Assembly (NCBI GenBank): GCA_037305845.1
Contig: CP147778.1
Location: forward strand, 2,784,001 to 2,848,000
Origin: Candidatus Freyarchaeum deiterrae
Lineage (GTDB): Archaea; Asgardarchaeota; Jordiarchaeia; Jordiarchaeales; Jordiarchaeaceae
Length of the DNA stretch: 64,000 nt
Reading direction: 5' to 3'
Position numbers and translations under genes: made by a program
In this document: positions 42,228 through 60,722 of the stretch, piece after piece
Numbering within the stretch: position 1 is the stretch's first letter
Layout of the letters: each line of letters opens with the position of its first letter
The notes under the pieces: model-generated
The model's input: the letters and a program-made list of their open reading frames with translations, nothing else
Database searches by the model: none
What the model was told of the DNA's origin: nothing

Positions 42228-42983
42228 TTAACTCATTTGACGTGATCCGTAGAATACTAAAGCGGACATTATCAAGCCTACGAATAGGATGATGAATGCT
42301 AACCATGGTGCTAGTACTCCCATGAATAGGAAGATTCCCGCGATTATGGATAGTACTCCTGTCGCTACGCTTAGTCCCGGGCTGTCTAGTCCTTCTCTCA
42401 GATTGACGAATGTGGCTCCGAAAATGATTAGTGTGCTTCCGACTGCTATGAGACCGAGCCATAAGAACACACCGTTAACGGCGGGTACGCCGCCCATAAC
42501 GACTAGGAACGCAAGCGTCCAAATAGGGGTTAGACCGATGATGTCGCTAAAATGTGTGATTAAGTATATTGAGGTAAGGTTATGCGTAGTGCCGCCAGTC
42601 GCCGCCCCAGCAAGCAATAGTATTAGGGCTAGTATGGCTCCTATTACTCCGAATACTAGGCTGACGGTGCCCATAGATTTTCCTTCTATTTTTCCCAGTC
42701 CGTAGAGTCCTACACCCATAAGAATTAGAGTAAGAACCAACAGTAACGCTAGAATAAAGGTTACAAACATGAAGCTGCTTAATGCACTACTTAAAGCCAA
42801 GTTCTGGAAGAGGCCTACAACTATGGTGTAATCATAGAGAATGAAAAAGAGATTTTGTATGGCCATCGCTTGTTGGTACATTGAACTGAAAGTGTAGTAT
42901 TGTATAATCCAAAATATTCCTATTACGGTCGCTACTATGCCGAGCACTGAGCCGATAATTCCCGCTGTAACTGATTTACTCAT
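42228..42983 (-). CDS. uncharacterised ~6-TM membrane protein, paralog 1
   Basis: Hydrophobic; shares GVGLYGLGK.EGKSMGTVSLVFGVIGAILA with the next gene. Confidence 0.8.
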   Translation of the reverse strand: MSKSVTAGIIGSVLGIVATVIGIFWIIQYYTFSSMYQQAMAIQNLFFILYDYTIVVGLFQNLALSSALSSFMFVTFILALLLVLTLILMGVGLYGLGKIEGKSMGTVSLVFGVIGAILALILLLAGAATGGTTHNLTSIYLITHFSDIIGLTPIWTLAFLVVMGGVPAVNGVFLWLGLIAVGSTLIIFGATFVNLREGLDSPGLSVATGVLSIIAGIFLFMGVLAPWLAFIILFVGLIMSALVFYGSRQMS

Positions 42984-43034
42984 ATATCCTCACTCATTCG
43001 TTGTTTCTATAATGAGATATTTTCTCAAATAAGC

Positions 43035-43051
43035 ATATAGACTTTACGGTA
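43035..43051 (-). promoter_or_regulatory. BRE-TATA promoter shared by the paralog pair (copy 1)
   Basis: TACCGTAAAGTCTATAT on the minus strand, 52 nt before ATG; nearly identical copy at 44040-44056. Confidence 0.6.
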
Positions 43052-43237
43052 TTAAAGGGGATTAAACGTACTTTTGTAAGAGTGCTTCGAGCAATTTAAT
43101 ACTTTAAAAGCATCATTAGTAGCGCAGATGTCTCTTTTCTTGCACCCCTCATCTTTTTAATTCTTTTTTACAAGAAAATCAGAGAAGATGCATTATTGTT
43201 GAATCAGAATCTAAAATAAAAAAAATATGAGAATAGT

Positions 43238-43990
43238 TTAATCCATTTCACGTGATCCGTAGAATACTAGGGCTGCCATTATGAAGGCAACGAACAGGAT
43301 GAATGCAGCTAGCCATGGAAGCAATATTATCCCAAACAAGAAGATTCCCGAGATTATAAATAGTACTCCTGTAGCCGTGCTTAGTCCCGGGCTTTCCAAT
43401 CCTTCTCTCACACTGATGAACGTTGCACCGAATATAATGATAGTAACACCGACTACTATGAAACCTAACCATAACCAGATTGAACTGACGTTAGCCACTC
43501 CACCTAAGAGGACAAGTATGTAAATAGGATACGTTGTAATCAACGGGAGATCGTAAATGAATGTCAGCAGTGAGATAAGTGTTGGCGTGTTGGGACCAGT
43601 TGCCCCCATCAGCAAAAGTAGTATAGCTAGGATGGCTCCTATTACACCGAATACTAGGCTGACGGTGCCCATAGATTTTCCTTCGACTTTACCGAGTCCG
43701 TAGAGTCCTACGCCAGTCAAAATTAAAGTTAAAACTAGAAGAACACCAAGGATAAATGTTAAACCAGCTAAATTACTTTGCAAGTCACTCACATGGATGT
43801 TCATGAAGAAACTTATCTGAACTACACGATCAAGTAAGCTTGGTTGAATGATTGGAAGATTTTGAATACCAACCGCGGCGTCATGATTTGCAACGAAGTC
43901 CACGTACCTTATACCCCACAGAATTCCAACAATAGCTGCCACTATGCCTGAAACAGCGCCGAAAATACCGGTAACAATAGATTTACTCAT
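43238..43990 (-). CDS. uncharacterised ~6-TM membrane protein, paralog 2
   Basis: MSKS start, REGL.SPGLS.ATGVL and ALVFYGSR shared with paralog 1. Confidence 0.8.
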   Translation of the reverse strand: MSKSIVTGIFGAVSGIVAAIVGILWGIRYVDFVANHDAAVGIQNLPIIQPSLLDRVVQISFFMNIHVSDLQSNLAGLTFILGVLLVLTLILTGVGLYGLGKVEGKSMGTVSLVFGVIGAILAILLLLMGATGPNTPTLISLLTFIYDLPLITTYPIYILVLLGGVANVSSIWLWLGFIVVGVTIIIFGATFISVREGLESPGLSTATGVLFIISGIFLFGIILLPWLAAFILFVAFIMAALVFYGSREMD

Positions 43991-44249: not shown

Positions 44250-44606
44250 TCATTTTGAGTGATTATGATTCTTCGATGGGTAAAGTACATGTCTTGTGTA
44301 CGCGACTCCTAGGGGCGTTAAGTCTACGTCGCTTCCTTGCACTGTAATATAAAAAGAGTCTTGCAGTAGTTGGAGATGAAACTTTATAGTTTTTTCGTCC
44401 ATACTCATTTTTTTGGATATATCTTTTATTTTTAGAGGTCTGTCTTTGAGAAGCGTCATAATCTCTCGCCTGGTTGGGTTTTGCATGGTGTGAAGTTCTC
44501 TTCTGTGTTCCTCAGTCTGATTTCCCAACAGTTCCTTGTTTACTTCCTTTTCTCTCCAAGCGTCGATTTCCTCATCACTCATTCTTCTATAATCTATCTT
44601 AGGCAA
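44250..44606 (-). CDS. ArsR-family winged-helix regulator, paralog 1
   Basis: NPTRREIMTLL...TIKFHLQLL...LTPLG; AGGTGA SD. Confidence 0.82.
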   Translation of the reverse strand: MPKIDYRRMSDEEIDAWREKEVNKELLGNQTEEHRRELHTMQNPTRREIMTLLKDRPLKIKDISKKMSMDEKTIKFHLQLLQDSFYITVQGSDVDLTPLGVAYTRHVLYPSKNHNHSK

Positions 44607-44885
44607 CACTCTCACCTTTCAACTCTACTCTTTACAAAAATGACACGTACCAATTATTAAAATGCATTCAACAGTGTTATTGTATCATATTGAAATGCTT
44701 TCAAAATAAAGTTTGCGTGTCGTTCTTTAAACTGAAATTCCAACATCACACATTCACATAATGCCTTTACTAGATTTAGCGGCACAAGGTGGCTCTAATG
44801 TTATATGCGGAAAAAGAGCATATTAAAGTCAAAGTATTGGAAGAGTTGGTTGTCCGAACACAACTTTCTTTACATTTTCATATTT

Positions 44886-45212
44886 TTATTTTAACACATT
44901 TCTTGTGTACGCTACTCCCGGAGGTGTCAAGTCTACCTCATTTCCTTCTATTTTAATAAAGAAGGATCGTTCTAGGACTTGTAGATGGAACCTTAATGTT
45001 TTTTCTTCTAGTTTCAATTCACCTGCTATCTCTTCTATTGTTAGAGCCTTATCTTTGAGAAGTGTCATAATCTCTCGTCTGACTGGGCTTTGCATGACGT
45101 GTAGCGACCTTCTGGCTTCAGTTGGGTTTCCTACCAGCCCTGCATCTGCTACTTTTTTCCTCCAGGCTTCAAGTTCTTCGTTACTCATTTCTCTACAATT
45201 TTTCTTCTTCAA
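44886..45212 (-). CDS. ArsR-family winged-helix regulator, paralog 2
   Basis: SPVRREIMTLL...TLRFHLQVL...LTPPG; AGGTGA SD. Confidence 0.82.
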   Translation of the reverse strand: MKKKNCREMSNEELEAWRKKVADAGLVGNPTEARRSLHVMQSPVRREIMTLLKDKALTIEEIAGELKLEEKTLRFHLQVLERSFFIKIEGNEVDLTPPGVAYTRNVLK

Positions 45213-45581
45213 ACCTCTCACCTTTTCTTCAGCTATCCGAGATGGATGTACCATGGATTTAAGTAAGATAAAACAGTAATCTGTATGCTTCCAAGTTATA
45301 TATCTAACAAATTTTTCATCATGTTTTTTCTCAGATTAAAATTCAGCACCAACCGTTTCCATGCTGCCCCTAAAGGTATTCATTAGCATCATGGTTCATG
45401 CTAAGAGTTGTATGCAGAAAAAAACTTGAGGACTGCTACACAATTTTACCTTGGGAGCCATGCTTAGGCTTTGGATTGGAATTTGGGGCAATCGAAAATA
45501 TAGAGTTAACTGAACCTCTTCTTTTTTAGTTCATCTATAATCGTAAAACGAGGCCTTTTCTTAGGAGAGCTTGAAAAAAAA

Positions 45582-45848
45582 TTATTCTTCGAAAACCCTT
45601 GTTTTTATTCTATTAAATTCTTTTACCGTGATTGCTCCAGCTTCTAAGGCTTCTAAGGCTACCGTGATTTCTTCCAATACTATGCGTGCTTTTTGGCAAA
45701 CCTCACTGGGGGTGTCTTGATCCCTTTCTATTTTTTCGTATTCTTCCCAGCACTGTTCTAGGCACTTGTGTATATCGTTGGATTTGCCGCTCTCCTCTTC
45801 TAAGAGGGAGGCCAACTCCCTTAAGTTATTCATAGCCGCTTTTGACAA
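45582..45848 (-). CDS. small helical protein with SHOCT-like C-terminus
   Basis: ALEALEAGAITVKEFNRIKTRVF; GAGGGTGG SD. Confidence 0.65.
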   Translation of the reverse strand: MSKAAMNNLRELASLLEEESGKSNDIHKCLEQCWEEYEKIERDQDTPSEVCQKARIVLEEITVALEALEAGAITVKEFNRIKTRVFEE

Positions 45849-46298
45849 TATCTTCCACCCTCACGGAAGTTTATTCATTACCTTAAAATGTAATCCACGC
45901 ACTTATATCCCTTATGCATCTAATTTATTTAGCTCTCCTTATATTTTTTTAGATTTTTATCAATAGTTTCTAGGTTTTCCTAACATTTCAATCTTTATAG
46001 AACACATATTACTATTAAGTATGTAGAATATCATGATATTAGCGCCATATATATCTAAACAGATATAACAGTGTTACTTAATACAAAAAGCTATTTCTAC
46101 CACCCACATTGTTTCAAAATAACTAGTTCACCCTAAAAAGATTATACACCTGTAAAATATATGTGCCAAATTTAGTACTGGTTTCACAGTCCAGAACCCA
46201 AAAAGAAAAAGACAGAATGGATTAAATCAAATAGGTAACGCAAAGTATTTCTCTGATTAGTTATCGAAATAGAAAAAGGGAAATATCCCTTAACCTCC

Positions 46299-47843
46299 CT
46301 ATTTGAAGAGTTCCTTCCTCGCTCTTCTCGACTGTTTAGCGTTTCCCACAGTAGCTTCATCTTCTGAAGTCCCCTTTCTTGACCTTAATTCATTGAGTTC
46401 ACCTGCTAAAGCCTTATTGACACTTGCTGCTTTCGGCGCTGCCATGGGGGCTCCTGCAATTTGTTGTTGATATCCTGAGATTATTTCTTCGGCTTTGTCT
46501 TGTTTGCCTTGATAGGCTGCTCTTCCTGCTTGCTGTACTCTCATTGCTCCCGAGATTTCTGGTTCATATGTTTTTACGTACTCCTTTTCGTCTTTAGCCC
46601 TTTGGACTTTTTTTGAAACTACTCGTAGGTGCTTCTTTCCTTCGGCGTCTGTGTACTGGATTTGTGCCTGGATTGAAACTTCTTCATCTTTTATTTCCTT
46701 GGCTGATTCCATTTCGAAGTAAATCTCTCTGTCAGATGTTACTCCTCCCAGTCGAATAGGTTCTTCTGGTTTCAAGGTTTCGGACGCTGTTCCTGTCGCA
46801 TCCACAAGTTTTAAGGCAGGTGGAGTAAACATTTGCACTTCTACGTTTCGAGCTATGTATCCCTTACCTCGAATGTCGGCGAATGTTTTCTCAATTTCCT
46901 CCATAGTTACGTAGTAGATGTCTCCTCCGGTTTCCAGAGCGAGGTTTCCCAGAGTCTTTAAAGCTAATTGACTCTCTGTTGACTGCTCACGTACACCGAC
47001 CACATCAACTATTATGTTACTGAGATTGCAGCTTCCCGCAGCTTCTTTGTAGAAGTTTTTACCCGTGGCACTCGCGCCTTCGAGGGTTCCGAACCCTGTG
47101 TTGGCCAGTCCGTCGGTGAGCAGGAGTAAGCGTCCTCCGCTTCTCATCTTGAGAAGAGTGTATCCTCCGAGGAGTCCCGGTCCTAGGGATGTCATATCCA
47201 TGGGCTGAAGTTTAGATACGGTTTCTATCCATTTTTTCGCAGTTTTTTCAACAGGCTCAAAATCGTACTTCGCTTGGCTGAACTTTTCTGCGGCTTTTTC
47301 CTGAGAATAAAGATCATCACCGGTCACTGTTAGAGCGTTTGTACCTCTATAGTCGATTAGATAAACGCTGGATTCAAAGGCGATTAAACCGAACTTGCTC
47401 TGAGGCGCATTGACCTTAAGGTCCTTTATGGTTTCAGCCAAGCTATGCTTGACCGCCTCAAGTTTTCCTCCGGACATTGAGCCTGAAACATCTATTACTG
47501 CAACAATGTTGTCCCCTGTCAATGCTGGCTTTGTTGTCTTAATCTCCATGGCTTCTTCTATTATGAAGTCGACGTCATCGATTAGGTGAGCTGGTAAATC
47601 CTTGGGATCAACCACGTTTATTGCGCCGCAAAAAGCGCATTTAAAATGCGTTCCTATTTTGGGGTCTTTTTTAACACTGCTGGGGTCCGTTAAGACTCCG
47701 CCGCACTTTTGGCATTGGATAGGCTTTCCCACAATAACCTCTTTAGGCTTTTCCAAGTCTTCAAAAGACAGGGAGGCTACGTAAGGTAAATCTTCTTTGG
47801 TAGCTTTTCTCTCCAAAATCTTGTTAAAAGATGTTTTAAACAT
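46299..47843 (-). CDS. Sec23/24-type zinc finger + vWA domain protein
   Basis: PIQCQKCGGVL...FKCAFCGAINVV; IDVSGSM (MIDAS), TSLGPGL, LLTDGLAN, then a beta-rich region and helical tail. Confidence 0.8.
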   Translation of the reverse strand: MFKTSFNKILERKATKEDLPYVASLSFEDLEKPKEVIVGKPIQCQKCGGVLTDPSSVKKDPKIGTHFKCAFCGAINVVDPKDLPAHLIDDVDFIIEEAMEIKTTKPALTGDNIVAVIDVSGSMSGGKLEAVKHSLAETIKDLKVNAPQSKFGLIAFESSVYLIDYRGTNALTVTGDDLYSQEKAAEKFSQAKYDFEPVEKTAKKWIETVSKLQPMDMTSLGPGLLGGYTLLKMRSGGRLLLLTDGLANTGFGTLEGASATGKNFYKEAAGSCNLSNIIVDVVGVREQSTESQLALKTLGNLALETGGDIYYVTMEEIEKTFADIRGKGYIARNVEVQMFTPPALKLVDATGTASETLKPEEPIRLGGVTSDREIYFEMESAKEIKDEEVSIQAQIQYTDAEGKKHLRVVSKKVQRAKDEKEYVKTYEPEISGAMRVQQAGRAAYQGKQDKAEEIISGYQQQIAGAPMAAPKAASVNKALAGELNELRSRKGTSEDEATVGNAKQSRRARKELFK

Positions 47844-48040
47844 TCCACAATTCTCCAGCTATTCCGATTAAACATTTAACATAGTGTTAGAAATATAAAA
47901 AATTGAAACTAGGTAGTTAACTAATCAACTTACGAATAAAAATGTGTTATGGAATCGAAGGAATATTTTTATGCGATAGAATAATAAACCATTCCATTTT
48001 TATATTGTGTAAGAATTTTGAAACTAAGGAGGTTAAAATA

Positions 48041-48559
48041 TTGCCAATTATCGAATACTTGGGTAAGGCTCCAAAGATTCACTCGACAGCTTATGTCAGC
48101 CCTAATGCCTTTGTTTCGGGTGCCGTTGAAGTAGGTGAGCGGGGTTCAATTTTTGATTACGCAGTGGTTAGAGGCGACTTCTCAGCTATTAAAATTGGCA
48201 AGAACTCTAATGTTCAGGACTGCTGCTCGGTTCACGCGGCTACAACTGAGTGCGTCATAGGCGACAATGTGACAGTGGGACATGGAGCTGTTATTCATGG
48301 TGCAAAAATTGGTAATATGATAATAGTGGGAATAAACTCAACAGTACTTGATGGGGCTGAGATAGGCGATAACTGCATCATTGGCGCAGGAGCCGTTGTC
48401 ACCCCGAGTACCAAAATTCCCCCAAACAGTTTAGTTGTTGGCAACCCGGGAAAGGTCGCAAGAGAAATCAGCGAAACCCACCTCGCCACAATAAAATTCA
48501 GTGCTGAGAGTTACTCACAACTGGCGCAAAACTACAAAAAGATTTTTAAAAAACCCTAA
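48041..48559 (+). CDS. gamma carbonic anhydrase family protein
   Basis: VRGD, NVQD...H and VGHGAVIHG motifs; hexapeptide repeats; GGAGG SD then TTG. Confidence 0.92.
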   Translation: MPIIEYLGKAPKIHSTAYVSPNAFVSGAVEVGERGSIFDYAVVRGDFSAIKIGKNSNVQDCCSVHAATTECVIGDNVTVGHGAVIHGAKIGNMIIVGINSTVLDGAEIGDNCIIGAGAVVTPSTKIPPNSLVVGNPGKVAREISETHLATIKFSAESYSQLAQNYKKIFKKP

Positions 48560-48577
48560 TCCTAACTCCTTTTATTT

Positions 48578-49180
48578 TTAGGGTCTTTTTACAACATCGA
48601 ATAGTTTGTCCAAATCTTTGGTTATCTTTTCTTTTTTCTCGTTTAACGTCTTCGTTATCATCTGGTATTCATTTTCAGTGATTCTCTTTTCTTCCCTAGC
48701 AACCTCAACTTCTGCCATTCTGCTGAAGAGTCTTTCGAGTTCTCGCTCCAGATCGTGCAGTGAAACTTTAGGTCTTTGACCCATTAGGTCCCAATAACTT
48801 GCGCGAGAGATTTTCCCTTCTTCCTTTAACTCAGGCTTTTTAACTGGTTCAGGTTCTTTCTCCAACATGTATTCCCGTTCTTCCGCTTCCGGCTTAACGC
48901 TGGCTTGCTCTTCTTTCACCATAAGGGTCTCACCAGCGGAGACGAAAATCAGTTCCTGAATCAGGTTGACCGCGGTTTCTAAAAGGGTTTCAACATTTCG
49001 AACCCGCTCGTCTAATCTGTCTATTTTCTGTACTAGGGAATCGAAGCCGTTGTCTATTTTTTTCTTCTCAGTGATCTTATCAAGCATTCTATCAAGGAGT
49101 GATTTCATTCTCTCTATCTCTTCCCTTCCAACCAAAGCCGCTCCCTCCACAATGTCGTATGGGCTCTCAACTTGTTTCAT
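48578..49180 (-). CDS. coiled-coil protein with C-terminal helical hairpin
   Basis: IDRLDERVRNVETLL coiled coil, an E/P/K linker, then VEVAREEKRITENEY. Confidence 0.7.
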   Translation of the reverse strand: MKQVESPYDIVEGAALVGREEIERMKSLLDRMLDKITEKKKIDNGFDSLVQKIDRLDERVRNVETLLETAVNLIQELIFVSAGETLMVKEEQASVKPEAEEREYMLEKEPEPVKKPELKEEGKISRASYWDLMGQRPKVSLHDLERELERLFSRMAEVEVAREEKRITENEYQMITKTLNEKKEKITKDLDKLFDVVKRP

Positions 49181-49476
49181 TTTTAAAGGCTCCCTTCTTA
49201 CCAATTAATCGTATTATTTTATAAACATATTACTTATTTCAAACTACCACAAATCTATTTGTAATACCCATGTAATACCTTATCTTAAGTATTCTCCGCT
49301 ATTTCGCCCAAGAAATGTTGTAATGTATTTTTTAAATAAGTATTTAAATTTTATTATTTACTCGCTTTGTTAAGAGATTCGAGAACTAGTAACCCTTCAG
49401 TTAAAGGAAAAAAATATGAAGTTAAAAAGAAAGAAACTTCTTTTCCCATAGTAAAAAGAAAAAAATTGATATGAGA

Positions 49477-49908
49477 TTATAAGTAGAATACGCCACCAAG
49501 TTGGAAATAATAGAACAATATGGCTCCAATTGCGGCAACTATGATAAAAATGGCCAGTGTTGTTATCATCACAAGTCGGGCTCTTCGTATAAGCTGTAGG
49601 GGTGCTTTTGGTCTAAGCAAGAATATCGTTATAAGAGTGACACCTAGGCCTACCGTTACGAGCCCAACTATGGCATGTACTATTATGAATAAGTTCTCAT
49701 TGGGGTAGGAAAAAGAACTAAGATATGTAAGGGCGCTAGGAGCCATCCAAAGGATTATGATGGCTACTTGTGTAGCGATCACCGAATAAACTATTCCGTG
49801 GTGCAGCCTTAGGTTTAGTCTTCTTGCTCCGAAACGCCAACCAATAATAAGTGCCGCTACTAAAGCTATTTCAACTGGTAGCACGATTATAGCTTGTAAA
49901 GCAGGCAT
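49477..49908 (-). CDS. 4-TM membrane protein, DUF420-like
   Basis: GWR..R..N..LH and IIVHAIVG, with His in TM2 and TM3. Confidence 0.65.
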   Translation of the reverse strand: MPALQAIIVLPVEIALVAALIIGWRFGARRLNLRLHHGIVYSVIATQVAIIILWMAPSALTYLSSFSYPNENLFIIVHAIVGLVTVGLGVTLITIFLLRPKAPLQLIRRARLVMITTLAIFIIVAAIGAILFYYFQLGGVFYL

Positions 49909-49915
49909 GTTCTTT

Positions 49916-50680
49916 TCACTTCCTCTTCTTTTTCTTCTCTACTTTGGCACTAATATCGCTGATGCTTCCCCTAGTAGTGAACATACAGGAATCAATTGAA
50001 GTTTCCCTATTCTCATGACTAGTCAGAATTGCTGATCCTATCATTCCCCAGGGGCAAAACCTGGTATTGGCTTTTAGGTAAGCATCTGAATCATGAATCT
50101 TTGCGAAGGCGCAACCATTTGCAACAACTTTGACCTTGTTATCTTCAGTCACTGTAGCTCGGGCGTATTTTACAAATTTCTTTTCCTGAATGTATTTGGT
50201 GTACGCGTCGAGTTTATCTTTCAGTGGAACTTTTTCTCCTATAAATGCCGCCGGGAGGTAAGCCGAGAGGATGTCAGCTAATCGTTTGAACACATAATTC
50301 TTAATTGCAGTGTCACCCAGGATGTTTATGAAAACACTTTCGTAGCCAAAAATTGCAGCTCTAAGTTCCCAAATTTCCTCCATTGTGAAAGCCTGTGCCG
50401 CCCGTTCTTCACTAGTTCGTTCTACCTTTTTTTTGAGTCGCGACATGAAAGATTTAAGCTCGGAAATCAATTTATCAGAGTCCCCTTTCTCGGAGAAGAT
50501 TTCTGGAAGAAACTCTCGGACATAATAAACCATTCTCGGTAATACGTGCTCCTCCAGAACGTTTGGGCCAATCAGTTCAATTCCAACCGCTTCATAGGCT
50601 TCTAAAATACCGTTGTAAAGGAACACCGCTTCCAATTCTTCTTTATTAGTCTTGGATTCATCCATTTCGTTCCCTTGCAT
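49916..50680 (-). CDS. hypothetical protein with internal duplication and V4R-like C-terminus
   Basis: 84-aa-period repeat; GCAF...FCPWG...DSC. Confidence 0.7.
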   Translation of the reverse strand: MQGNEMDESKTNKEELEAVFLYNGILEAYEAVGIELIGPNVLEEHVLPRMVYYVREFLPEIFSEKGDSDKLISELKSFMSRLKKKVERTSEERAAQAFTMEEIWELRAAIFGYESVFINILGDTAIKNYVFKRLADILSAYLPAAFIGEKVPLKDKLDAYTKYIQEKKFVKYARATVTEDNKVKVVANGCAFAKIHDSDAYLKANTRFCPWGMIGSAILTSHENRETSIDSCMFTTRGSISDISAKVEKKKKRK

Positions 50681-50761
50681 AATATACACTTCCCTTCCTT
50701 TTGTGGCAGTTACTAATCATTAAAAAATATAACATAAAAATATTTCTACTTAACTAGATAG

Positions 50762-51802
50762 TTAAGAGTACCGAAATAGCGAAACTGCAAAGTCCTCGCT
50801 TGAATTCTTCCGGTGAAGTGAGAGCCGTTTCGTACCACCATCGATAATGAATACGTTCAACTCATCGAACGCCCGGTGATTAATCAGCTTGGAGAAACCA
50901 TTGATATTATTTATCAAAGTTGAGAGAATGATTCCACTGAGCTGAGGAAGCGGCTCACCTTCCTCATGGATGATGCTCCCATTTTTTGGGAGAGTTGATC
51001 TGTTCAGGGTGAATGTATTTTTGTGGGATAAGCTAACTAAAGAGTCTAAGGAAGCGTAGTAACACATGTTAATTGCAGCATCTAGAACCTCCTGTTCAGG
51101 AGTCTGCGGTGCACCAGTTGCCAAACTGAGGATTTTTCCACTCCAAACAGAAGCGACCGCATATTCTTGTGAACGGATGGTGAAATAAGAATACGAATCT
51201 GAGAGTCCTAGTTTCGAGAGAGCTTGTTGCAGCGTCGTGAATAAGAGTAAAAATTCCTTAATCTGCTCTTCTCTGAACAAAGGTTTTGGACGGGCAAAAT
51301 GGGTGATTTCCTTTCTCTCCTCTGAATCTACTAGAAAGGCAAGCGGTATGTTTGTTCTCTTCTGAAGCATTTCCTTGATGTAAGATGCCTGTCCTTCTAC
51401 ACTAAAAAGTTGAGATACTAGCACCGAAATCTCCTTTTTTAACTTCTCCTTCTCCGGAGTGTTTAATACCGGAAACTCTTCTTTGGAAACCAGAGTTTGC
51501 TCAACAAGGTCGTGAATCTTCTTTAGAGCATCTCTAGCAAGGCGCTCTGGCACTTTTCTATCGAAGATACTCACAACCACTTTGTCCTCGTCGCAACACT
51601 TCATAAAAAGAAAGTACTCCCTTTCCGTCGAGAAGGAATCAATAACATCCGAACGAGTAGTCTCACTGAAATCCTTGATTGCACTTAGAAGACCTGAAGA
51701 AAGAATAATAGATGAATCACTATCCTTCATCTTTTTATCACTAGAATAATAGAAGAAGGGAATACCATTGCCAATAACAAAAACCTCTTTGAGCATTTCC
51801 AT
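50762..51802 (-). CDS. longin/roadblock multi-domain protein
   Basis: EVFVI.NGIPFF...LSSGLLSAIKDFS longin signature; the second and third segments have a similar beta-beta-alpha-beta-beta-beta pattern. Confidence 0.75.
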   Translation of the reverse strand: MEMLKEVFVIGNGIPFFYYSSDKKMKDSDSSIILSSGLLSAIKDFSETTRSDVIDSFSTEREYFLFMKCCDEDKVVVSIFDRKVPERLARDALKKIHDLVEQTLVSKEEFPVLNTPEKEKLKKEISVLVSQLFSVEGQASYIKEMLQKRTNIPLAFLVDSEERKEITHFARPKPLFREEQIKEFLLLFTTLQQALSKLGLSDSYSYFTIRSQEYAVASVWSGKILSLATGAPQTPEQEVLDAAINMCYYASLDSLVSLSHKNTFTLNRSTLPKNGSIIHEEGEPLPQLSGIILSTLINNINGFSKLINHRAFDELNVFIIDGGTKRLSLHRKNSSEDFAVSLFRYS

Positions 51803-52385
51803 TGAACTCACTTCCCGCCTGACGAAATTGATTCGCACATGAGGTTGTGACAACTTGCTCTTAAGCGACTTTTTTCTCCTAAACCATTATAGAACATATT
51901 TCGAAGGATAGAATATATTCTTTCACATTGCTCATTCCTTACTATAAGATAATAAGAATGCTTAGTCACCAAGTGGATTAAACCAGGATTGGGATAAACA
52001 CATACCAGCATCCCGTTTCTTCCCCTTATAACTAGTTGCTCAGCGTTTAGTAAATAATTAGCTGAGAAAAATGATTTTTAATTTTGAGCTAGGCTTTTAT
52101 GAAATTATTTTACAAGCAAAATTTGCGAAAGAATTATTTTATTAATTTTATAAGTGAATATCCCTTATCAACTTTTCTTACCGTATTATTATTCTGCCAC
52201 AAGTTTTTGTACTAAAAAGCCAAAACTTATAAGTTCCAAGCCAACAAGAAAACATTTTTATTGACTCGCTTCCCCATCTGTAAAATTTCCCCATTTATGC
52301 ATTTGGAAGTTACAGAACAAGCTGCATTTACTAATTAATCAATAAAACAAAATAAGAAATTAAGATAAAAAGTTTAAAAAATATG

Positions 52386-53189
52386 TTACCTACCTAGCCT
52401 TTTAAGTTCATCAGGTTCCATTTTTGCTATTTTCCCGTTTTTGTCGATAACGCCGACTTGGCGTACAGGCACCCCTGCCCAAACTGTATTCGGCGGAATC
52501 TTTGTATCCTTTGGAATAAATGACATACCCGCGATGAATGAATTGTCTCCGATAGTAGTCCCTGGAAGAACCATCGTTTCGCCTCCAACTACTGCATTAT
52601 TTCCTATTCTTATCTTCGCCATGTAGAATCGGTTTCCTTCAATCATATGTGTTGCCAGAATAGAGCTGACTCCACAGATAGCATTGTCGCCCATTTCAAC
52701 CATGTACGGCTCACCCATTATAGCGACTACAGCGTTTTTACCCATTTTTGCACCAAGGAATCTGTGAATTCTGGTCTGTAGACCTGGTTGCCCCCAAGGG
52801 AAGGCACCTACAGTCGCAGAGGCGAAAGCGGTCATAGCGGCATTCGAGACCCATTTTCTAACAGTCTCATCACGCATATCGAAATCGTGGGACCCCTCCT
52901 CCAGAGGCTTTACTGTAAAGTGTGCAAAGAGTAGCAACGTTAGTTTGAATGTCCACTTTACCACAAAGTACAGAAACGGGGTGAGAGCAATCCAAACCCA
53001 AATCGGCATATCAATACGATACATACTATAAAGCAGTATCGAAAGCAGGTACACGCCGTAACAAATTGCACCAGACACTGCACCTGCAGCTATAAAACTT
53101 ATTAGCGTAGCACTACCCAAAAGAACGCCGGTCTTCGGCGGTCTCCGTGTTTTTAAATCCTCTACTTTTTCTTCCTTCTTTTTAGCCAA
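52386..53189 (-). CDS. membrane-anchored hexapeptide-repeat (LbH) acyltransferase-like protein
   Basis: 2 TM, LGAKMG, IRIGNNAVVG..VLPG and WAGVP motifs. Confidence 0.82.
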   Translation of the reverse strand: MAKKKEEKVEDLKTRRPPKTGVLLGSATLISFIAAGAVSGAICYGVYLLSILLYSMYRIDMPIWVWIALTPFLYFVVKWTFKLTLLLFAHFTVKPLEEGSHDFDMRDETVRKWVSNAAMTAFASATVGAFPWGQPGLQTRIHRFLGAKMGKNAVVAIMGEPYMVEMGDNAICGVSSILATHMIEGNRFYMAKIRIGNNAVVGGETMVLPGTTIGDNSFIAGMSFIPKDTKIPPNTVWAGVPVRQVGVIDKNGKIAKMEPDELKRLGR

Positions 53190-54121: not shown

Positions 54122-56683
54122 ATGAAGAAAGAAAAAATTCCGATTCAGGGAATGCATTGTGCGACCTGCGCCGGAACTATAGAGAAATCACTATACGAAC
54201 TACAGGGTATTTCAAAAGCTGATGTTAGTTACGGTTCCGAGAGCGCGATTGTCACTTATGATGAAAACAAGGTTAATTTAAGCTCCATACACAATCAGAT
54301 AACCAAGGCTGGTTACGACGTTAAAAAGGAGAAAGTAAGACTGAAAATCGTTGGAATGCATTGTGCGACCTGTGTACAGACCGTTGAAAAAGCTCTACTG
54401 AGTGTGGAGGGTGTACTATCCGCCGAAGTTAGCTTAGGTGCCGAGAGTGCAATTGTTACCTACACTTCCCCTGCAACAATTGCTGATATGAAAAAAGCGG
54501 TTAAAGAAGCGGGTTACAAGGTAATAGACGAGTATTCAGAAAAAGAGGCTGCAAAGGTTCTCACAAGGCAGAAACGGATTTTCGCTTTTACAGTACTCCT
54601 CACAATTCCCATAGTTATTGGAAGTTTTGCTAGCGTACTTCCATTCCCGGTTCCCGCTATCATGCAGAATCCAATATTCCTGTTTCTACTCGCAACACCT
54701 GTTCAATTTATTGGAGGTTACCAATACTATAGAGGCTCTTATTATTCTCTCAGGAATAAGGTAGCGAATATGGATGTCTTAATAGCCATGGGTACGTCCG
54801 TGGCTTATTTCTACAGCGTATTTGCCACTTTCATAATTCCCGGTCAATTATACTATGATACCGGAGCCATGATCCTGTCGTTCATTTCTTTGGGAAAGCT
54901 CCTAGAAGCAATCGCTAAAGGCAGAACGAGTGAAGCGGTTAAGAAGTTAGTGCAGCTACAGGCCAAAACCGCTGTTGTTATCAGAGATGGGGAAGAGGTG
55001 GAAATTCCCATAGACGAAGTTGCTGTGAAAGATATCCTTGTAGTAAAACCCGGTGAAAAAATTCCTGTAGATGGAACCGTGAAAGAAGGGCACTCGACCG
55101 TCGATGAATCTATGATAACCGGAGAACCAATACCTGCTGAGAAGAATGTAGGAGACCAAGTTATAGGTTCAACCATAAATAAAAACGGTTACCTGCACGT
55201 AGAGGCGCAGAAGGTTGGCAAAGACACTATGCTTTCACAAATAATTCGAATGGTGGAGGAGGCTCAAGGCTCAAAGGCACCCATACAAAGTTTAGCTGAT
55301 AAGGTAGCTTCAATTTTCGTACCCTCAGTTATTCTTCTAGCATTTGGAGCCTTCCTATACTGGTTAATTATTGGGCAAAAAGATCCTCTGTTCTCGATGC
55401 TTATTCTGGTCGCGGTTCTCGTTATTTCATGTCCCTGCGCTCTAGGGTTAGCTACCCCAACCGCCATAATGGTGGGTACGGGTAAGGGAGCGGAAGCCGG
55501 TATACTCATTAAAGGCGGAGAATCCCTAGAGAAAGCCTACAAAATTAACACCGTGGTTCTCGACAAGACCGGAACCATAACTAAGGGTGAGCCAGAAGTA
55601 ACCGATGTAGTGGGCGATGTGCTAGAAATTGCAGCGGCGGTGGAAAAAGATTCCGAGCATCCACTGGCCGAAGCAATAATAAGAAAAGCCAAGGAAGAAA
55701 AAATCAAAATTCCAAACGTGAAAGCCTTCTACGAATATCCCGGTAAGGGAGTGAAGGCGGAGCTTAACGGAATGGAAATACTCGTAGGAAACAGAAAACT
55801 GGTCAAAGAGGAAAAACTGAAAAATAGCTTTGAAAAGGAGTCACGAAAACTCGAGGAGATGGGAAAAACAGTACTATTCGTAGCAGAAGACCGAGAAGTA
55901 AGGGGACTAATCGCCATAGCCGACACTCTAATGGAACACTCCATGGAAGCAATCCAGGAACTGAAAAACATGAACCTGGACGTGGTTATGATAACTGGTG
56001 ATAATCAGAAAACCGCTCAGGCAATAGCCAGCCAGGTCGGCATAGACCGAGTATTATCCGAAGTTCTGCCCGAGGACAAGGCAAGCGAAGTGAAAAAAAT
56101 CCAAGAGGAAGGAAGAATCGTAGCCATGGTGGGCGATGGAATAAACGACGCACCAGCCCTCGCACAGGCAGACGTAGGGATAGCCATAGGCTCGGGAACC
56201 GATGTGGCAATCGAAACCGGCGACATAGTTCTCATAAAACACGACCTGAGAGACATCGCAACATCCATAAGGCTGAGCAAAAAATCAGTAAACAAGATAA
56301 AGCAGAACCTGTTCTGGGCATTCATATACAACATTATAGCCATCCCTATAGCGGCTGGAATACTCTACCCCATACTATTACCTCCCGCCCTAGCAGCGGC
56401 GGCGATGGCAATGAGCTCAGTAACCGTTGTATCCAACTCACTCTTACTCAAAAGATTCAACCCCCAAAAGAGAAAAATAAAAATAAAAAAAGAAAAAGGA
56501 GGAGAAAAAATGGCAAAAGCTAAAGCTACCAAAGCTACCAAAGCTACAGACCCAGTGTGCAAGATGGAAGTAGATCCAAAAACAGCCAAATTAAAGAGCG
56601 ATTACAAAGGAAAAACTTACTATTTCTGTGCTCCCGGCTGCAAGAAATCATTTGACGAGAATCCCCAAAAATTTGTAAAGTAA
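54122..56683 (+). CDS. copA: Cu(I)-exporting P1B-1 ATPase with 2 N-terminal HMA domains and a C-terminal YHS domain
   Basis: GMHCATC x2, CPC, DKTGT, SEHP, YN..., MAMSS and DPVC.M...YFCAPGC. Confidence 0.95.
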
Positions 56684-56721
56684 AGTAAGAAACAAAATAA
56701 AAATTCCAATTTCTACCTTTA

Positions 56722-56740
56722 CTTCTTTTTTTATTTTTTT
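56722..56740 (+). terminator. T-rich terminator-like tract after copA
   Basis: T-rich tract (T7 and T7 runs) about 40 nt after the stop. Confidence 0.4.
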
Positions 56741-56827
56741 GGATAAATACTTCTAGAATAATAATTATCTAAGTGCTGATTTGTTTTTCAAAACTTTATG
56801 TTGAGATGCAAGAAATAATTTCTAAAC

Positions 56828-56846
56828 AAGCTATATCAGATAGCTT
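56828..56846. promoter_or_regulatory. perfect 7-5-7 inverted repeat upstream of copB, candidate operator
   Basis: AAGCTAT-ATCAG-ATAGCTT. Confidence 0.4.
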
Positions 56847-56997
56847 AAAATTAAAACTTACTACATATCTATATTGTCCGTGATAAACATGGTGGGGATA
56901 CATGAACATTTTAAGTAAATTGCACCTCGCTTCCTCAAAAGATTTCCAAAATTCATAAAGGAGGGGTAAAACGAAACATAAACAACAAGACCACCAA

Positions 56998-59181
56998 ATG
57001 CATAATCAGATGCAACATAAAGAGCATCAAAATCACGCTCATCACATAGAAGAGTTCAGAAGGAGACTATGGGTTTCTCTCATACTAACAATACCCGTTT
57101 TACTTCTTTCAGCGACTATCCAGTCGTGGTTTGGTTTCAAAATAAACATCCCATACCAGAATGTGGTTTTGCTCCTTCTGTCTTCCGTTATTTACTTTTA
57201 CGGCGGATGGCCCTTCATAAAAGGCATGGTGCAGGAAATAGGAGACCGACATCCCGGAATGATGACCCTTATAAGTACAGCAATATCCGTGGCCTTTTTC
57301 TACTCCGCCGGGACGGTATTCTTCATAAGCGGAGAGGGCTTCTTCTGGGAACTTGCTACCCTAATTGATGTAATGCTTCTCGGACACTGGATAGAAGCAA
57401 AAAGTGTCCTCGGTGCTTCGAGAGCACTAGAAGAACTAGTTAGAATAATGCCCACAACAGCCCACCTAGTGAAAAACAGTAATATCGTAGATGTACCAGT
57501 CTCCCGGTTAAAGGCCGGTGATATCGTTCTGGTTCGTCCAGGCGAGAAAGTACCTTCTGATGGCTTGGTAGTTGATGGGGAATCCTTTCTCAACGAAGCC
57601 CTTCTGACAGGGGAATCCAAACCAGCCCATAAAAAAATAGAGGACAAAGTTATAGGCGGCTCCATAAACACGGAAGGCGGTCTGAGGGTTAGAATAGAGA
57701 GGACAGGGGAAGAAACCTATCTGTCACAGGTAATAAAACTTGTGAGAGAAGCTCAGGAAAGCAGGTCCAGAACTCAGGATCTGGCAAACAGAGCAGCGGC
57801 TCTTCTTTTTTACGTTGCAATAAGTGTTGGAGCAACAACCTTCCTAGTATGGTACCTCCTCGGAACTCCTGACTTCGCCCTTGAGAGATCCGTCACCGTT
57901 CTGGTCATAGCCTGTCCCCACGCCCTAGGCCTGGCTATACCTCTCGTTGTCGCTTTATCCACCTCAATAACTGCGAAGAGTGGAATCCTCATAAGAGATA
58001 GGAGAGCCTTTGAAGAGGCTAGGGATATAAATGCTGTTGTGTTTGACAAGACCGGCACACTAACGGAGGGCAAGTTTGGTGTAAGCGACATGGTTTCCTT
58101 CGTCTCAGAAGACGAACTCTTAAATCTGACCGCGAGTGTAGAACTCGACTCGGAGCATATAATAGCAAAGGCTATCGTGGAATACGCCAAGGAAAAAGGT
58201 ATACAAACTCCTCAGGTGCAGGAATTCAGAGCGATACCCGGTAAGGGTGCCTACGGAAGGGTTGAGGGCAGAGAAGTTTATGTGGGAAGCCCAAACCTCT
58301 TGGAAGAGATGAACATAGAGATAAAGGACAAGAAGATAAAAAAACTAATGGAGCAGGGAAAAACGGTCGTTTTTACAGTGGTTGATGGAAAACTCGCCGG
58401 TGCCTTCGCGCTCTCCGATAGGATAAGGAAAGAATCCTACGAAGCGGTTAAAAAACTAAAGGAATTAGGGGTAAAGGTTTACATGCTCACAGGTGATTCC
58501 GAAGAAGTCGCTCGATGGGTTGCAAAGGAACTCGGTATAGACGACTACTTTGCCCAGGTTCTACCTCATCAAAAGTCAGAAAAAGTCGAACTCTTGAAGA
58601 ATCAAGGCTATAGGGTTGCTATGGTTGGCGACGGTATAAACGACGCCCCAGCCCTAGTTACAGCCGATGTTGGAATCGCCATAGGTGCTGGAACAGATGT
58701 AGCTATTGAAAGCGCAGACATAATTCTTGTGAAAAATGACCCGAGGGATGTTACAAAAGTTGTTGATATTTCAAAGAAATCATACTCAAAGATGTACCAG
58801 AATCTGTGGTGGGCGGCGGGTTATAACATATTCGCCATACCCTTAGCAGCAGGCATCCTATACAATTACGGCATACTTATAATTCCTGCTCTCGGGGCTC
58901 TGTTCATGTCCGCAAGCACCATCATAGTCGCCTTAAACAGCCAAACTCTGAGGAAATATGAACCAAAAGGAGTAGAATTTTTAGAGAAGAAGCAAATAAC
59001 CACAGATCCAGTTTGCGGGATGAAGGTAGAACCAGAAGAGGCTGCGGGTAAGGCTGAGTATAAGGGGTACGTTTTCTACTTCTGTTCAGAAGAACATGAA
59101 AAGGAATTCAAGAAAAATCCTGAAAAATACTTCTCCAAGGCGAAGAAGAAACAGGAGGAACATAAGCCCCATCATCACTAA
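56998..59181 (+). CDS. copB: P1B-3 copper ATPase (His-rich N-term, CPH) with C-terminal YHS domain
   Basis: HQNHAHH, PGMMTL, LGHWIE, CPH, DKTGT, GYN, MSAST and DPVCGM..YFCS. Confidence 0.93.
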   Translation: MHNQMQHKEHQNHAHHIEEFRRRLWVSLILTIPVLLLSATIQSWFGFKINIPYQNVVLLLLSSVIYFYGGWPFIKGMVQEIGDRHPGMMTLISTAISVAFFYSAGTVFFISGEGFFWELATLIDVMLLGHWIEAKSVLGASRALEELVRIMPTTAHLVKNSNIVDVPVSRLKAGDIVLVRPGEKVPSDGLVVDGESFLNEALLTGESKPAHKKIEDKVIGGSINTEGGLRVRIERTGEETYLSQVIKLVREAQESRSRTQDLANRAAALLFYVAISVGATTFLVWYLLGTPDFALERSVTVLVIACPHALGLAIPLVVALSTSITAKSGILIRDRRAFEEARDINAVVFDKTGTLTEGKFGVSDMVSFVSEDELLNLTASVELDSEHIIAKAIVEYAKEKGIQTPQVQEFRAIPGKGAYGRVEGREVYVGSPNLLEEMNIEIKDKKIKKLMEQGKTVVFTVVDGKLAGAFALSDRIRKESYEAVKKLKELGVKVYMLTGDSEEVARWVAKELGIDDYFAQVLPHQKSEKVELLKNQGYRVAMVGDGINDAPALVTADVGIAIGAGTDVAIESADIILVKNDPRDVTKVVDISKKSYSKMYQNLWWAAGYNIFAIPLAAGILYNYGILIIPALGALFMSASTIIVALNSQTLRKYEPKGVEFLEKKQITTDPVCGMKVEPEEAAGKAEYKGYVFYFCSEEHEKEFKKNPEKYFSKAKKKQEEHKPHHH

Positions 59182-59321
59182 AAAAACATTTTTCAGTTTA
59201 TCCCGTGGCTTCGGGCTAAGCAACCCTTAACATCATATCTCACCTTTCGACCTGGTCACTTAACTGAAGGTACCACTTAAGGGCTTAGACTTGCTGATAG
59301 TCAGAGAATAGAAAACTTTCA

Positions 59322-60722
59322 TCACTCCACACAACAGCTCATTTTGGTTATATCCCTTCTGAAGGATTGAGCAGTAATTTTTATTGCTTCGGATAATGTT
59401 GGGAATATGTGCAATGTGTCTATTACATCATCAATAGTCATTCTATTTTTGACAATCATAACTCCCTCATGTATTAAATCGGCAGCCCCGGATGCTAAGA
59501 TGTGAATTCCTATTATCTCCTGTGTTTGTTTATCAATTACAATTTTTACCGCTCCCCTTGTATCCTTGATTGCCTGTCCTTTCGGCACCAGTTCCATAGG
59601 AACGGTGTTGCATGCACAACTTATTCCCTTTTCATTTGCCAGTGCGTCTGTTAAGCCTACCCCTGCAAGCTGAGGATCGGTGAATACTGCCTGGGGGACA
59701 ACCCGGTAATCCATTGTTTTCTTATTTTCAGAAAGAGCATTGTTTACTGCAATCATCCCCTCTTTCGCTGCAACAGTTTCAAGCATCGGTTCTCCGGTAA
59801 CATCTCCAGCAGCCCAAAAATTCTCCACTGCCCGCATTTCCTCATTAACAATAACTTCTCCTTCCCTACCCAACCTGATTCCGAGTTTTTCCAACCCCAT
59901 ATCGGAAGTATTTGGTCTTCTTCCAGTTGCAACTAGTAATTGCTCTCCTCTGTATGATTTTTCTTTTCCATCAACAACCGCTTTTACAATTTTTTCCTTT
60001 CCTTCCAGTCTAACTCTTTTGATTTCAGCCCCCGTGTGAATTTCTATTCCCTCATCTTGTAAGTATCCTTGCAGAAGGCTGGTAAGTTCTGGTTCCTCTT
60101 TTGGAATAATCCTATTCGCTCTTTGCAGAAGACAAATCTCAGTTCCAAATCTTGAAAACATCTGAGCAAATTCTATTCCTAACGGCCCTCCACCAAGAAC
60201 TATTAGGGAGTTAGGTAATTCTTTCAACTGTAACACCTCAATGTTGGTGAGATAATCAACTTCGTTAATTCCCTCAATGGGAGGTACAGATGTTGAAGAA
60301 CCGGTTGCAATAATGAACTTATTTGCTTTGTAAACTTCTCCGTTCACCTGAACTTCAGTTTTTGAAACAAATTTAGCGTTGCCTTCAACGTATTCAACAC
60401 TAGAGAATTCCCTTAACACGCTCTCGTACTTTTCTTTCCTAAATTTCTCAACGAGTTTATCCTTTTCCTCGATAATGGTTTTGAAGTCAAAAGAAGCTGA
60501 TGCACTCAACCCTTCAAGGTTATGTGCTTTCATTTTGTGAATAACTTCTCCCACGTACAATAAGTGTTTAGTTGGTAAACAACCAACATTTACACAGGTT
60601 CCACCCATTCCAACAGCACTATTGTTTACCATCAACGTCTCAGCTTCAAATTCGTTGGCCTTCATAGCCGCAGCAAACCCTGCCGCTCCACCACCCAAAA
60701 TAATCAGGTGAAATCGGTTCAA
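59322..60722 (-). CDS. merA: mercuric reductase (no NmerA domain)
   Basis: GGGAAG, GGTCVNVGCLP, VFTDP, FPTLSE and C-terminal MSCC. Confidence 0.92.
   Translation of the reverse strand: MNRFHLIILGGGAAGFAAAMKANEFEAETLMVNNSAVGMGGTCVNVGCLPTKHLLYVGEVIHKMKAHNLEGLSASASFDFKTIIEEKDKLVEKFRKEKYESVLREFSSVEYVEGNAKFVSKTEVQVNGEVYKANKFIIATGSSTSVPPIEGINEVDYLTNIEVLQLKELPNSLIVLGGGPLGIEFAQMFSRFGTEICLLQRANRIIPKEEPELTSLLQGYLQDEGIEIHTGAEIKRVRLEGKEKIVKAVVDGKEKSYRGEQLLVATGRRPNTSDMGLEKLGIRLGREGEVIVNEEMRAVENFWAAGDVTGEPMLETVAAKEGMIAVNNALSENKKTMDYRVVPQAVFTDPQLAGVGLTDALANEKGISCACNTVPMELVPKGQAIKDTRGAVKIVIDKQTQEIIGIHILASGAADLIHEGVMIVKNRMTIDDVIDTLHIFPTLSEAIKITAQSFRRDITKMSCCVE

Follow-up and report, generated by a model that had tools for sequence, protein, structure and literature searches.

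A conserved longin/roadblock, V4R-fold, and membrane protein operon beside an unrelated Sec23/24-like gene in the Asgard archaeon Candidatus Freyarchaeum deiterrae

Characterized longin and roadblock domains are platforms for small GTPases. In the TRAPP core, a longin pair is flanked by TRAPP-domain dimers, and the longins contact Bet3-fold subunits (PMC10152722). A linker between the first two domains (alphaX-betaX, between LD1 and LD2) is called defining for the tri-longin guanine nucleotide exchange factors (GEFs) (PMC8833172), while longins of GTPase-activating proteins (GAPs) of the FLCN/SMCR8/NPRL2 type carry a GP motif before strand 2 (PMC12290439). The roadblock protein MglB binds MglA through its alpha2/alpha2' two-helix side (PMC3199381). 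For Asgard archaea, one Heimdall longin-TRAPPC3 fusion is known, the GTPase genes of MK-D1 are generally not in operons with TRAPPC3/V4R-type genes, and gene order gives little guide to partners (PMC10933270). Here, we analyze a 64,000-nucleotide stretch of Candidatus Freyarchaeum deiterrae (the window; contig CP147778.1, positions 2,784,001 to 2,848,000), from an assembly comprising a single contig of 3,576,204 bases with 40.7% GC. A sequence-only reading had proposed that six genes at window positions 45582-51802 form a proto-coat/GEF module of Sec23/24-like, V4R-like, and longin/roadblock proteins. We show that this stretch is two unrelated units side by side: a genus-level run encoding a coiled-coil protein, a gamma-carbonic-anhydrase-like protein, and a Sec23/24-like protein, and a three-gene cassette with the following members:

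50762..51802, minus strand: cassette gene 1, a 346-amino acid (aa) longin-roadblock-truncated roadblock/lamtor-like protein (model and structural search)
49916..50680, minus strand: cassette gene 2, a 254-aa protein of V4R/Bet3/H-NOX fold with extra N-terminal dimerization helices (model and structural search)
49477..49908, minus strand: cassette gene 3, a 143-aa, four-helix, DUF420-like membrane protein (hydrophobic segments and Pfam matches within the family)

The longin/roadblock, V4R-fold, and membrane proteins form a conserved operon, and this operon is the real unit. The order longin, V4R, transmembrane is fixed in 41 loci from approximately 33 other Asgard genomes, with variable flanking genes. 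Gaps between genes 1 and 2 and between genes 2 and 3 are 81 and 7 nucleotides (nt), followed by 296 nt before the coiled-coil gene. The transmembrane gene is absent from one such locus, at a contig edge; some distant members have it inverted but keep it next to the V4R gene; and two remote longin-type homologues lack a V4R neighbor. Approximately 60%-identical orthologues of the V4R-like protein occur in 38 other genomes from three families, mostly of Thorarchaeota and Hodarchaeales type. None of the three proteins receives a direct name from Pfam or NCBIfam, and we found no description of the cassette, its variant series, or an Asgard tri-longin in a literature search that covered papers other than subscription ones (e.g., the 2017 Asgard paper). 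All parts of the cassette have known folds, and a description of the Sec23-like gene already exists. What is new is the refuted Sec23 link, a controlled interface prediction, and a family-wide count. The TRAPP-like half of the proposed module stands; the six-gene unit does not, and the coat is unsupported.

The cassette sits at this spot only in this lineage. All five congeneric genomes (87-99% complete) carry the Sec23-like gene at 77% identity, and window queries found the cassette's longin, V4R, and transmembrane proteins in none of them. In two of these relatives' assemblies (G007 and G008) and two further contigs, the block 49477-51802 is missing between the same flanks; the upstream hexapeptide gene leads directly to the coiled-coil gene over 200-900 nt, versus 3.2 kb in the window. 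Other genes are inserted at other points of the locus in L169 and L170, which suggests that the locus gains and loses genes freely. Of 400 Asgard genomes, 31 besides the host encode a Sec23-like protein as well as the cassette. The two are adjacent in none of these (0/31), lying on different contigs in 27 and 74 kb to 1.18 Mb apart in four. Furthermore, no cassette V4R or transmembrane gene was seen in 20 Sec23-like loci read approximately 5 kb to either side. Synteny had been set beforehand as a test, and the six-gene order is not conserved. The co-location is also not above chance: in the host genome, 11% of all genes have a gene matching the longin profile within 6 kb (14% for a longin or V4R gene), and the neighborhood therefore requires no functional explanation. 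The only candidate sign of a mobile element at the block is the short inverted repeat described below (no transposase; unremarkable codon use and third-position GC), and a tree of a cassette protein gave no well-supported donor. An independent assembly (L067) has the identical gene order.

In its model, the gene 1 product resembles tri-longin GEFs and GAP longins while falling outside both groups as they are defined. The model has a predicted local distance difference test (pLDDT) score of 87.8 and comprises three alpha/beta domains. The longin (residues 1-134; Z 11-12) matches Trs23 (VIA Z 12.3) and Fuzzy (11.8), and the roadblock (residues 128-250 in the structural search, assigned as 135-250; Z 10.5-11) matches MglB (11.0) and LAMTOR (11.1). 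The third domain (263-345) is assigned from secondary structure only, as a truncated roadblock/lamtor-like domain without both terminal helices. The earlier identification of a multi-longin/roadblock protein was thus sound. In profile comparison, gene 1 matches a longin-plus-roadblock family (94%, E 1.5e-7), and no match to the stand-alone roadblock family was obtained. All homologues are unnamed Asgard proteins, and the host genome has one full-length copy.

The best Foldseek matches are Mon1/Ccz1, Fuzzy/Inturned, and HPS1/4, with E 1.7e-8 over approximately 400 columns and a template modeling (TM) score of only approximately 0.25. Gene 1 shares the domain order longin, roadblock, lamtor-like with these Rab GEFs, but the last helix of domain 3 is missing and the domains are packed differently. 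The alphaX-betaX linker is also absent from the model: the last helix of domain 1 (116-132) runs directly into the first helix of domain 2 (135-147). Whereas Mon1-Ccz1, Fuzzy-Inturned, and HPS1-HPS4 are heterodimer pairs, here a single gene is partnered with a V4R protein. Nor does the gene 1 family have the GP motif of GAP longins, having G/S-V/I-L at 13-15; proline occurs in 2 of 49 rows and never directly after glycine. A comparison with MglA-MglB (Myxococcus, Thermus) and the Ragulator roadblocks rests on domain 2 (Z 11 for both MglB and LAMTOR) and on related operons with the order GTPase, roadblock, V4R. In the cassette, by contrast, the roadblock pair shares its chain with a longin, the operon has no GTPase, and the GTPase-binding face is predicted to be taken by the V4R protein.

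The gene 2 product has a V4R-superfamily fold: its model (pLDDT 87.9) and alignment display a helical dimer layer, a four-stranded sheet, and a Cys-based site. All of its top 16 VIA matches are V4R, H-NOX, TRAPPC3, or BcsD proteins (Z 5-6.8). An internal repeat (E 2e-6, offset 84) places residues 15-65 again at 99-149, while there is a single beta-sheet (172-245), indicating that only the dimerization helices are duplicated. The “duplicated V4R-like protein” of the sequence-only reading therefore stands as to fold and helices, not as to the sheet. The model suggests that the product is a single-chain pseudo-dimer. Thor TRAPPC3 (7yh2; Z 6.6, root-mean-square deviation 3.8, 138 residues aligned), H-NOX, and YslB are tied at Z 6.4-6.8. 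C190, H196, and C209 are invariant in 119 homologues and, by analogy with the Asgard TRAPPC3/V4R proteins (PMC10933270), are likely a metal site. The cassette protein shares with Thor-TRAPPC3 and its relatives (7YH2, PMC10933270) the fold, a probable metal site tying sheet to helix, and a proposal of ligand binding, but has Cys-His-Cys rather than four Cys, an internal duplication, and fixed operon partners. Outside the window, a tandem V4R gene pair (genome G000, 3195114-3196004) includes one member with a weak Pfam TRAPP match (E 2e-5) and is closer to Bet3 in sequence than the cassette protein.

The gene 3 product has four hydrophobic segments, corresponding to four membrane helices, and invariant H36 and H78. 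Pfam DUF420 (PF04238) matches 6 of 17 family members (best 2.5e-6), the window copy not among them. DUF420 has been tied to heme-oxidase assembly (PMC8239418); heme binding by the gene 3 product is a guess. Searches of PDB sequences with the transmembrane, V4R, and Sec23-like proteins returned nothing useful. A second, stand-alone four-helix homologue is found outside the window in genome G000 (3429845-3430330), with no V4R or longin neighbor recognized.

The products of genes 1 and 2 are predicted to form a complex. The pair scored 0.68, compared with 0.00 for the best control, and partner pLDDT was at least 72. The score mark that it passes is reached by 58 of 80 solved pairs and 2 of 110 mismatched pairs, counts that are only rough for the alignments used. 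Three runs gave 0.68, 0.76, and 0.02, with a contact agreement of at least 0%. In the predicted interface, V4R residues 35-48 and their repeat-equivalent 120-129 face the central helices 178-193 and 288-299 of gene 1, in domains 2 and 3. The longin domain is free in the model, making no confident contact with the V4R protein; positions of residues other than those named are uncertain. Conservation is higher among V4R interface residues than in the rest of the protein (0.87 versus 0.68), and the central glycine of this interface is invariant also across single-copy relatives.

This two-fold pattern differs from that of TRAPP, so the passing score is less likely to come from the predictor reproducing known TRAPP structures. 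Like the TRAPP core (Bet3/Trs31/Trs33 and Bet5/Trs23/Trs20; 3CUE, 2J3T, 7B6D), the cassette combines a V4R/Bet3-fold protein, a predicted pseudo-dimer, with a longin fold, and both folds are among the top structural matches of cassette proteins. In contrast to TRAPP, however, the V4R part is not a heterodimer but one chain with a single sheet and its helical half duplicated, contact is predicted through the roadblock domains and not the longin, there is a separate integral membrane protein, and the V4R protein has no sequence match to Pfam TRAPP.

The cassette belongs to a wider V4R-roadblock/longin family. The V4R-domain profile has strong matches in approximately 130 of the 400 genomes. A longin/roadblock gene lies within 400 nt of the V4R gene in 58 of 64 intact single-copy loci, versus 2.6% expected for genes in general; the profiles were seeded from nine of the 64 loci, and related loci are not independent. 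Pfam separately gives Fuz_longin_1 or weak Longin/Robl_LC7 matches at such loci. None of the 12 other V4R genes of the host genome has a longin-profile neighbor. The variants comprise longin-roadblock-roadblock with a fusion of multiple transmembrane segments to V4R (30 loci), single-transmembrane V4R with longin-roadblock (13), soluble V4R with longin-roadblock (6), and a seven-transmembrane V4R protein (2). A further variant joins a Rab-like (Ras-family) GTPase, a roadblock, and a V4R protein in seven Loki-type loci from two genera of one family, and its roadblock has no fused longin:

L076:3723-5188, also L090, L093, L095-L097, and L111: tight, minimal operon of a Rab-like GTPase (185 aa), a roadblock (105-112 aa), and a V4R protein (157-171 aa)

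The host genome itself encodes roughly 20 small GTPases, one of which (2722681-2723214) is 44% identical to the GTPase of the minimal operon. In most variants, there is a membrane part, either fused or encoded separately, and three congeners carry other variants elsewhere in the genome. The roadblock is the constant partner across the variants, as the complex model predicts.

Two forms of the fused membrane part are worth recording. A His-bearing domain with multiple transmembrane segments and no Pfam name is fused to V4R in L070:4771-5808 and approximately 35 similar Loki-type loci. The seven-transmembrane version is found in L100, L101, and L106, once behind a Rag/Arf-like GTPase. We do not claim homology between the fused Loki-type domain and the separate four-helix protein: the spacing of His, Pro, and Trp agrees, and hhalign reached 93% with composition correction switched off. 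However, 2 of 60 locally shuffled controls matched this score, and the value fell to 0.1-0.4% under default settings.

We favor, with roughly even confidence, the reading that the cassette is a membrane-linked, sensor-coupled regulator of small GTPases rather than a vesicle coat. Under this proposal, the cassette would encode one complex. The V4R protein would bring its own second set of dimerization helices and, as predicted, dock these against the two roadblock domains at their paired central helices. The roadblock face concerned is that with which MglB binds its GTPase, so the V4R protein would most likely control whether a small GTPase encoded at another locus can reach the roadblock/longin platform. 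The signal to which the switch responds at the Cys-His-Cys/V4R pocket may be a metal or a small hydrophobic ligand; the membrane protein with its invariant histidines may tether the complex or feed in a membrane (heme/redox) signal. Several results weigh against this reading. The run scoring 0.02 shared no contacts with the others, and conservation on the longin-protein side of the interface is not significant (p 0.13). The third domain of gene 1 has no structural match of its own, and the fold match of gene 2 is middling (Z below 7), with Bet3 not separable from H-NOX or sensor V4R proteins. Profile comparison gave no reliable link between the separate four-helix protein and the fused membrane domains. 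None of the loci read has a GTPase next to the three-gene form; in the host genome, the closest small GTPases are approximately 54 kb away, and the GTPase-linked variant, coming from two genera of one family, represents few independent events.

The same data bear on three other explanations. If the cassette were a proto-TRAPP or tri-longin GEF, two copies would pair via their free longins, with the V4R pseudo-dimers flanking them as in the TRAPP rod. The free longin of the model, the Mon1/Ccz1-like domain order, the layout of the TRAPP core (PMC10152722), and the tied Thor TRAPPC3 match would all suit this arrangement. It is nevertheless unlikely, given the missing linker, the low whole-chain TM score of gene 1, a predicted contact through the roadblock instead of the longin, a V4R profile that in sequence matches neither Pfam TRAPP nor a PDB chain, and a GTPase-linked variant whose roadblock lacks a fused longin. 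We regard as comparably improbable a GTPase-independent unit that senses or carries a ligand, heme, or redox signal, in which the longin/roadblock protein would serve just as an adaptor to some other output. H-NOX and sensor V4R matches do tie with TRAPPC3, binding of hydrophobic ligands has been proposed for V4R domains (PMC2253512, PMC10933270), DUF420 has its link to heme-oxidase assembly (PMC8239418), and no GTPase is adjacent in 50 of the 58 linked loci or in any three-gene locus. Against it, characterized longin and roadblock domains serve GTPases, and a GTPase gene lies directly upstream of the partner gene in eight loci. The single six-gene proto-coat/GEF module is highly improbable. 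Its folds are real, five of its genes share a strand, and the Sec23-like gene adjoins roadblocks and small GTPases in other Asgard lineages; yet it failed on synteny, its Sec23-like and cassette genes are unlinked elsewhere, and nothing supports a coat.

We tentatively raise a broader possibility, which we consider doubtful: the Asgard-wide V4R-roadblock/longin family may be an archaeal forerunner of the longin-plus-Bet3 Rab regulators, in the form of a ligand-gated, membrane-anchored regulator of Rab-like GTPases. If true, it would show how a V4R sensor first came to be coupled to a GTPase platform, ahead of TRAPP and the tri-longin GEFs. Longin, roadblock, V4R, and small-GTPase genes number in the dozens in Asgard genomes. 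From the cassette and its variants come a named pair with a predicted interface, a possible membrane anchor, and, in the minimal operon, a possible GTPase partner. It thus becomes experimentally tractable to ask whether regulators like TRAPP or Mon1/Ccz1 existed in archaea. A false lead is also removed, as the Sec23-like gene is merely a neighbor of the cassette.

Re-reading the open reading frames confirmed all seven in window 45582-51802, with their positions and strands as originally reported, including the 7-nt spacing within the cassette and the gamma-carbonic-anhydrase gene on the plus strand. The absence of a small GTPase also held, as no P-loop GTPase motif was found in the window. Four genes lie outside the cassette:

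48578..49180, minus strand: coiled-coil protein (homologues)
47942..48559, plus strand: gamma-carbonic-anhydrase-like hexapeptide protein (NF050158 match below cut-off)
46299..47843, minus strand: 514-aa Sec23/24-like Zn-finger, von Willebrand factor A (vWA), beta-sandwich protein (Pfam)
45582..45848, minus strand: 88-aa helical protein, in neither unit (homologues/paralogues)

The Sec23/24-type assignment proved correct: Pfam Sec23_trunk (2e-8) and Sec23_BS (4e-8) are above cut-off, with a weak zf-Sec23_Sec24 match (0.03), and the protein has the Zn finger, trunk, and beta-barrel domains that define COPII Sec23/Sec24. No gelsolin domain, the part of COPII Sec23/Sec24 with the Sar1 GAP residue, was matched by Pfam, approximately 100 residues being all that follows the beta-sandwich. 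The Asgard Sec23/24-like family is already described, with all of its members lacking gelsolin (PMC11914678), and the 514-aa protein is an ordinary member with a Zn finger, vWA trunk, and beta-sandwich. It has matches in 149 of the 400 genomes. DxSxS and two CxxC motifs are present in all 21 homologues read, and the metal ion-dependent adhesion site (MIDAS) is intact in the window copy. Nearly all of the Asgard Sec23-like proteins read retain intact MIDAS-type DxSxS and TDG motifs, which suggests a metal-dependent vWA function.

Compared with Thor- and Loki-type loci, the window's Sec23-like gene has lost its roadblock and GTPase neighbors. In Thor-type loci (L161-L164, L168), it is part of a gene run that includes multiple roadblock genes and a GTPase of the MglA type in 5 of 6 cases, and in one Loki-type family (L153, L154) it directly follows a Rab-like GTPase in 2 of 3 loci. 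These loci are a better lead to its GTPase partner than the present window.

The gamma-carbonic-anhydrase-like protein (NF050158 E 7.8e-50, below cut-off) is 85% identical in congeners and is a genus-level neighbor of the Sec23-like gene; it lies on the opposite strand between the latter and the coiled-coil gene. The coiled-coil protein has 19 homologues, the named ones from Freyarchaeota/Jordarchaeaceae, and its gene is present in relatives without the cassette. It had been called a hairpin adaptor, but gives generic coiled-coil matches only. The SHOCT label once given to the 88-aa protein also falls away (Pfam E 0.13-0.88, not significant). Its gene, 450 nt from the Sec23-like gene in the window, is usually separated from it by four metabolic genes (approximately 5.4 kb in G007, G008, G010, and L171), adjoining it only in L170, and the protein has four scattered paralogues in unrelated contexts. 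A 33-nt match between the spacer of these two genes and congener DNA was considered as a deletion scar and rejected, being purine-rich.

A promoter scan gave a result at chance level. A 17-nt AT-rich inverted repeat (88%) flanks the cassette at window positions 49320-49336 and 52373-52389 and may be due to chance. At 42228-43990 and 44250-45254, there are tandem paralogue pairs of approximately 250-aa membrane proteins and approximately 120-aa ArsR-like helix-turn-helix proteins. A metal-resistance cluster at 54122-60722 comprises two heavy-metal P-type ATPases, which have YHS domains at their C termini, and then a MerA-like reductase.

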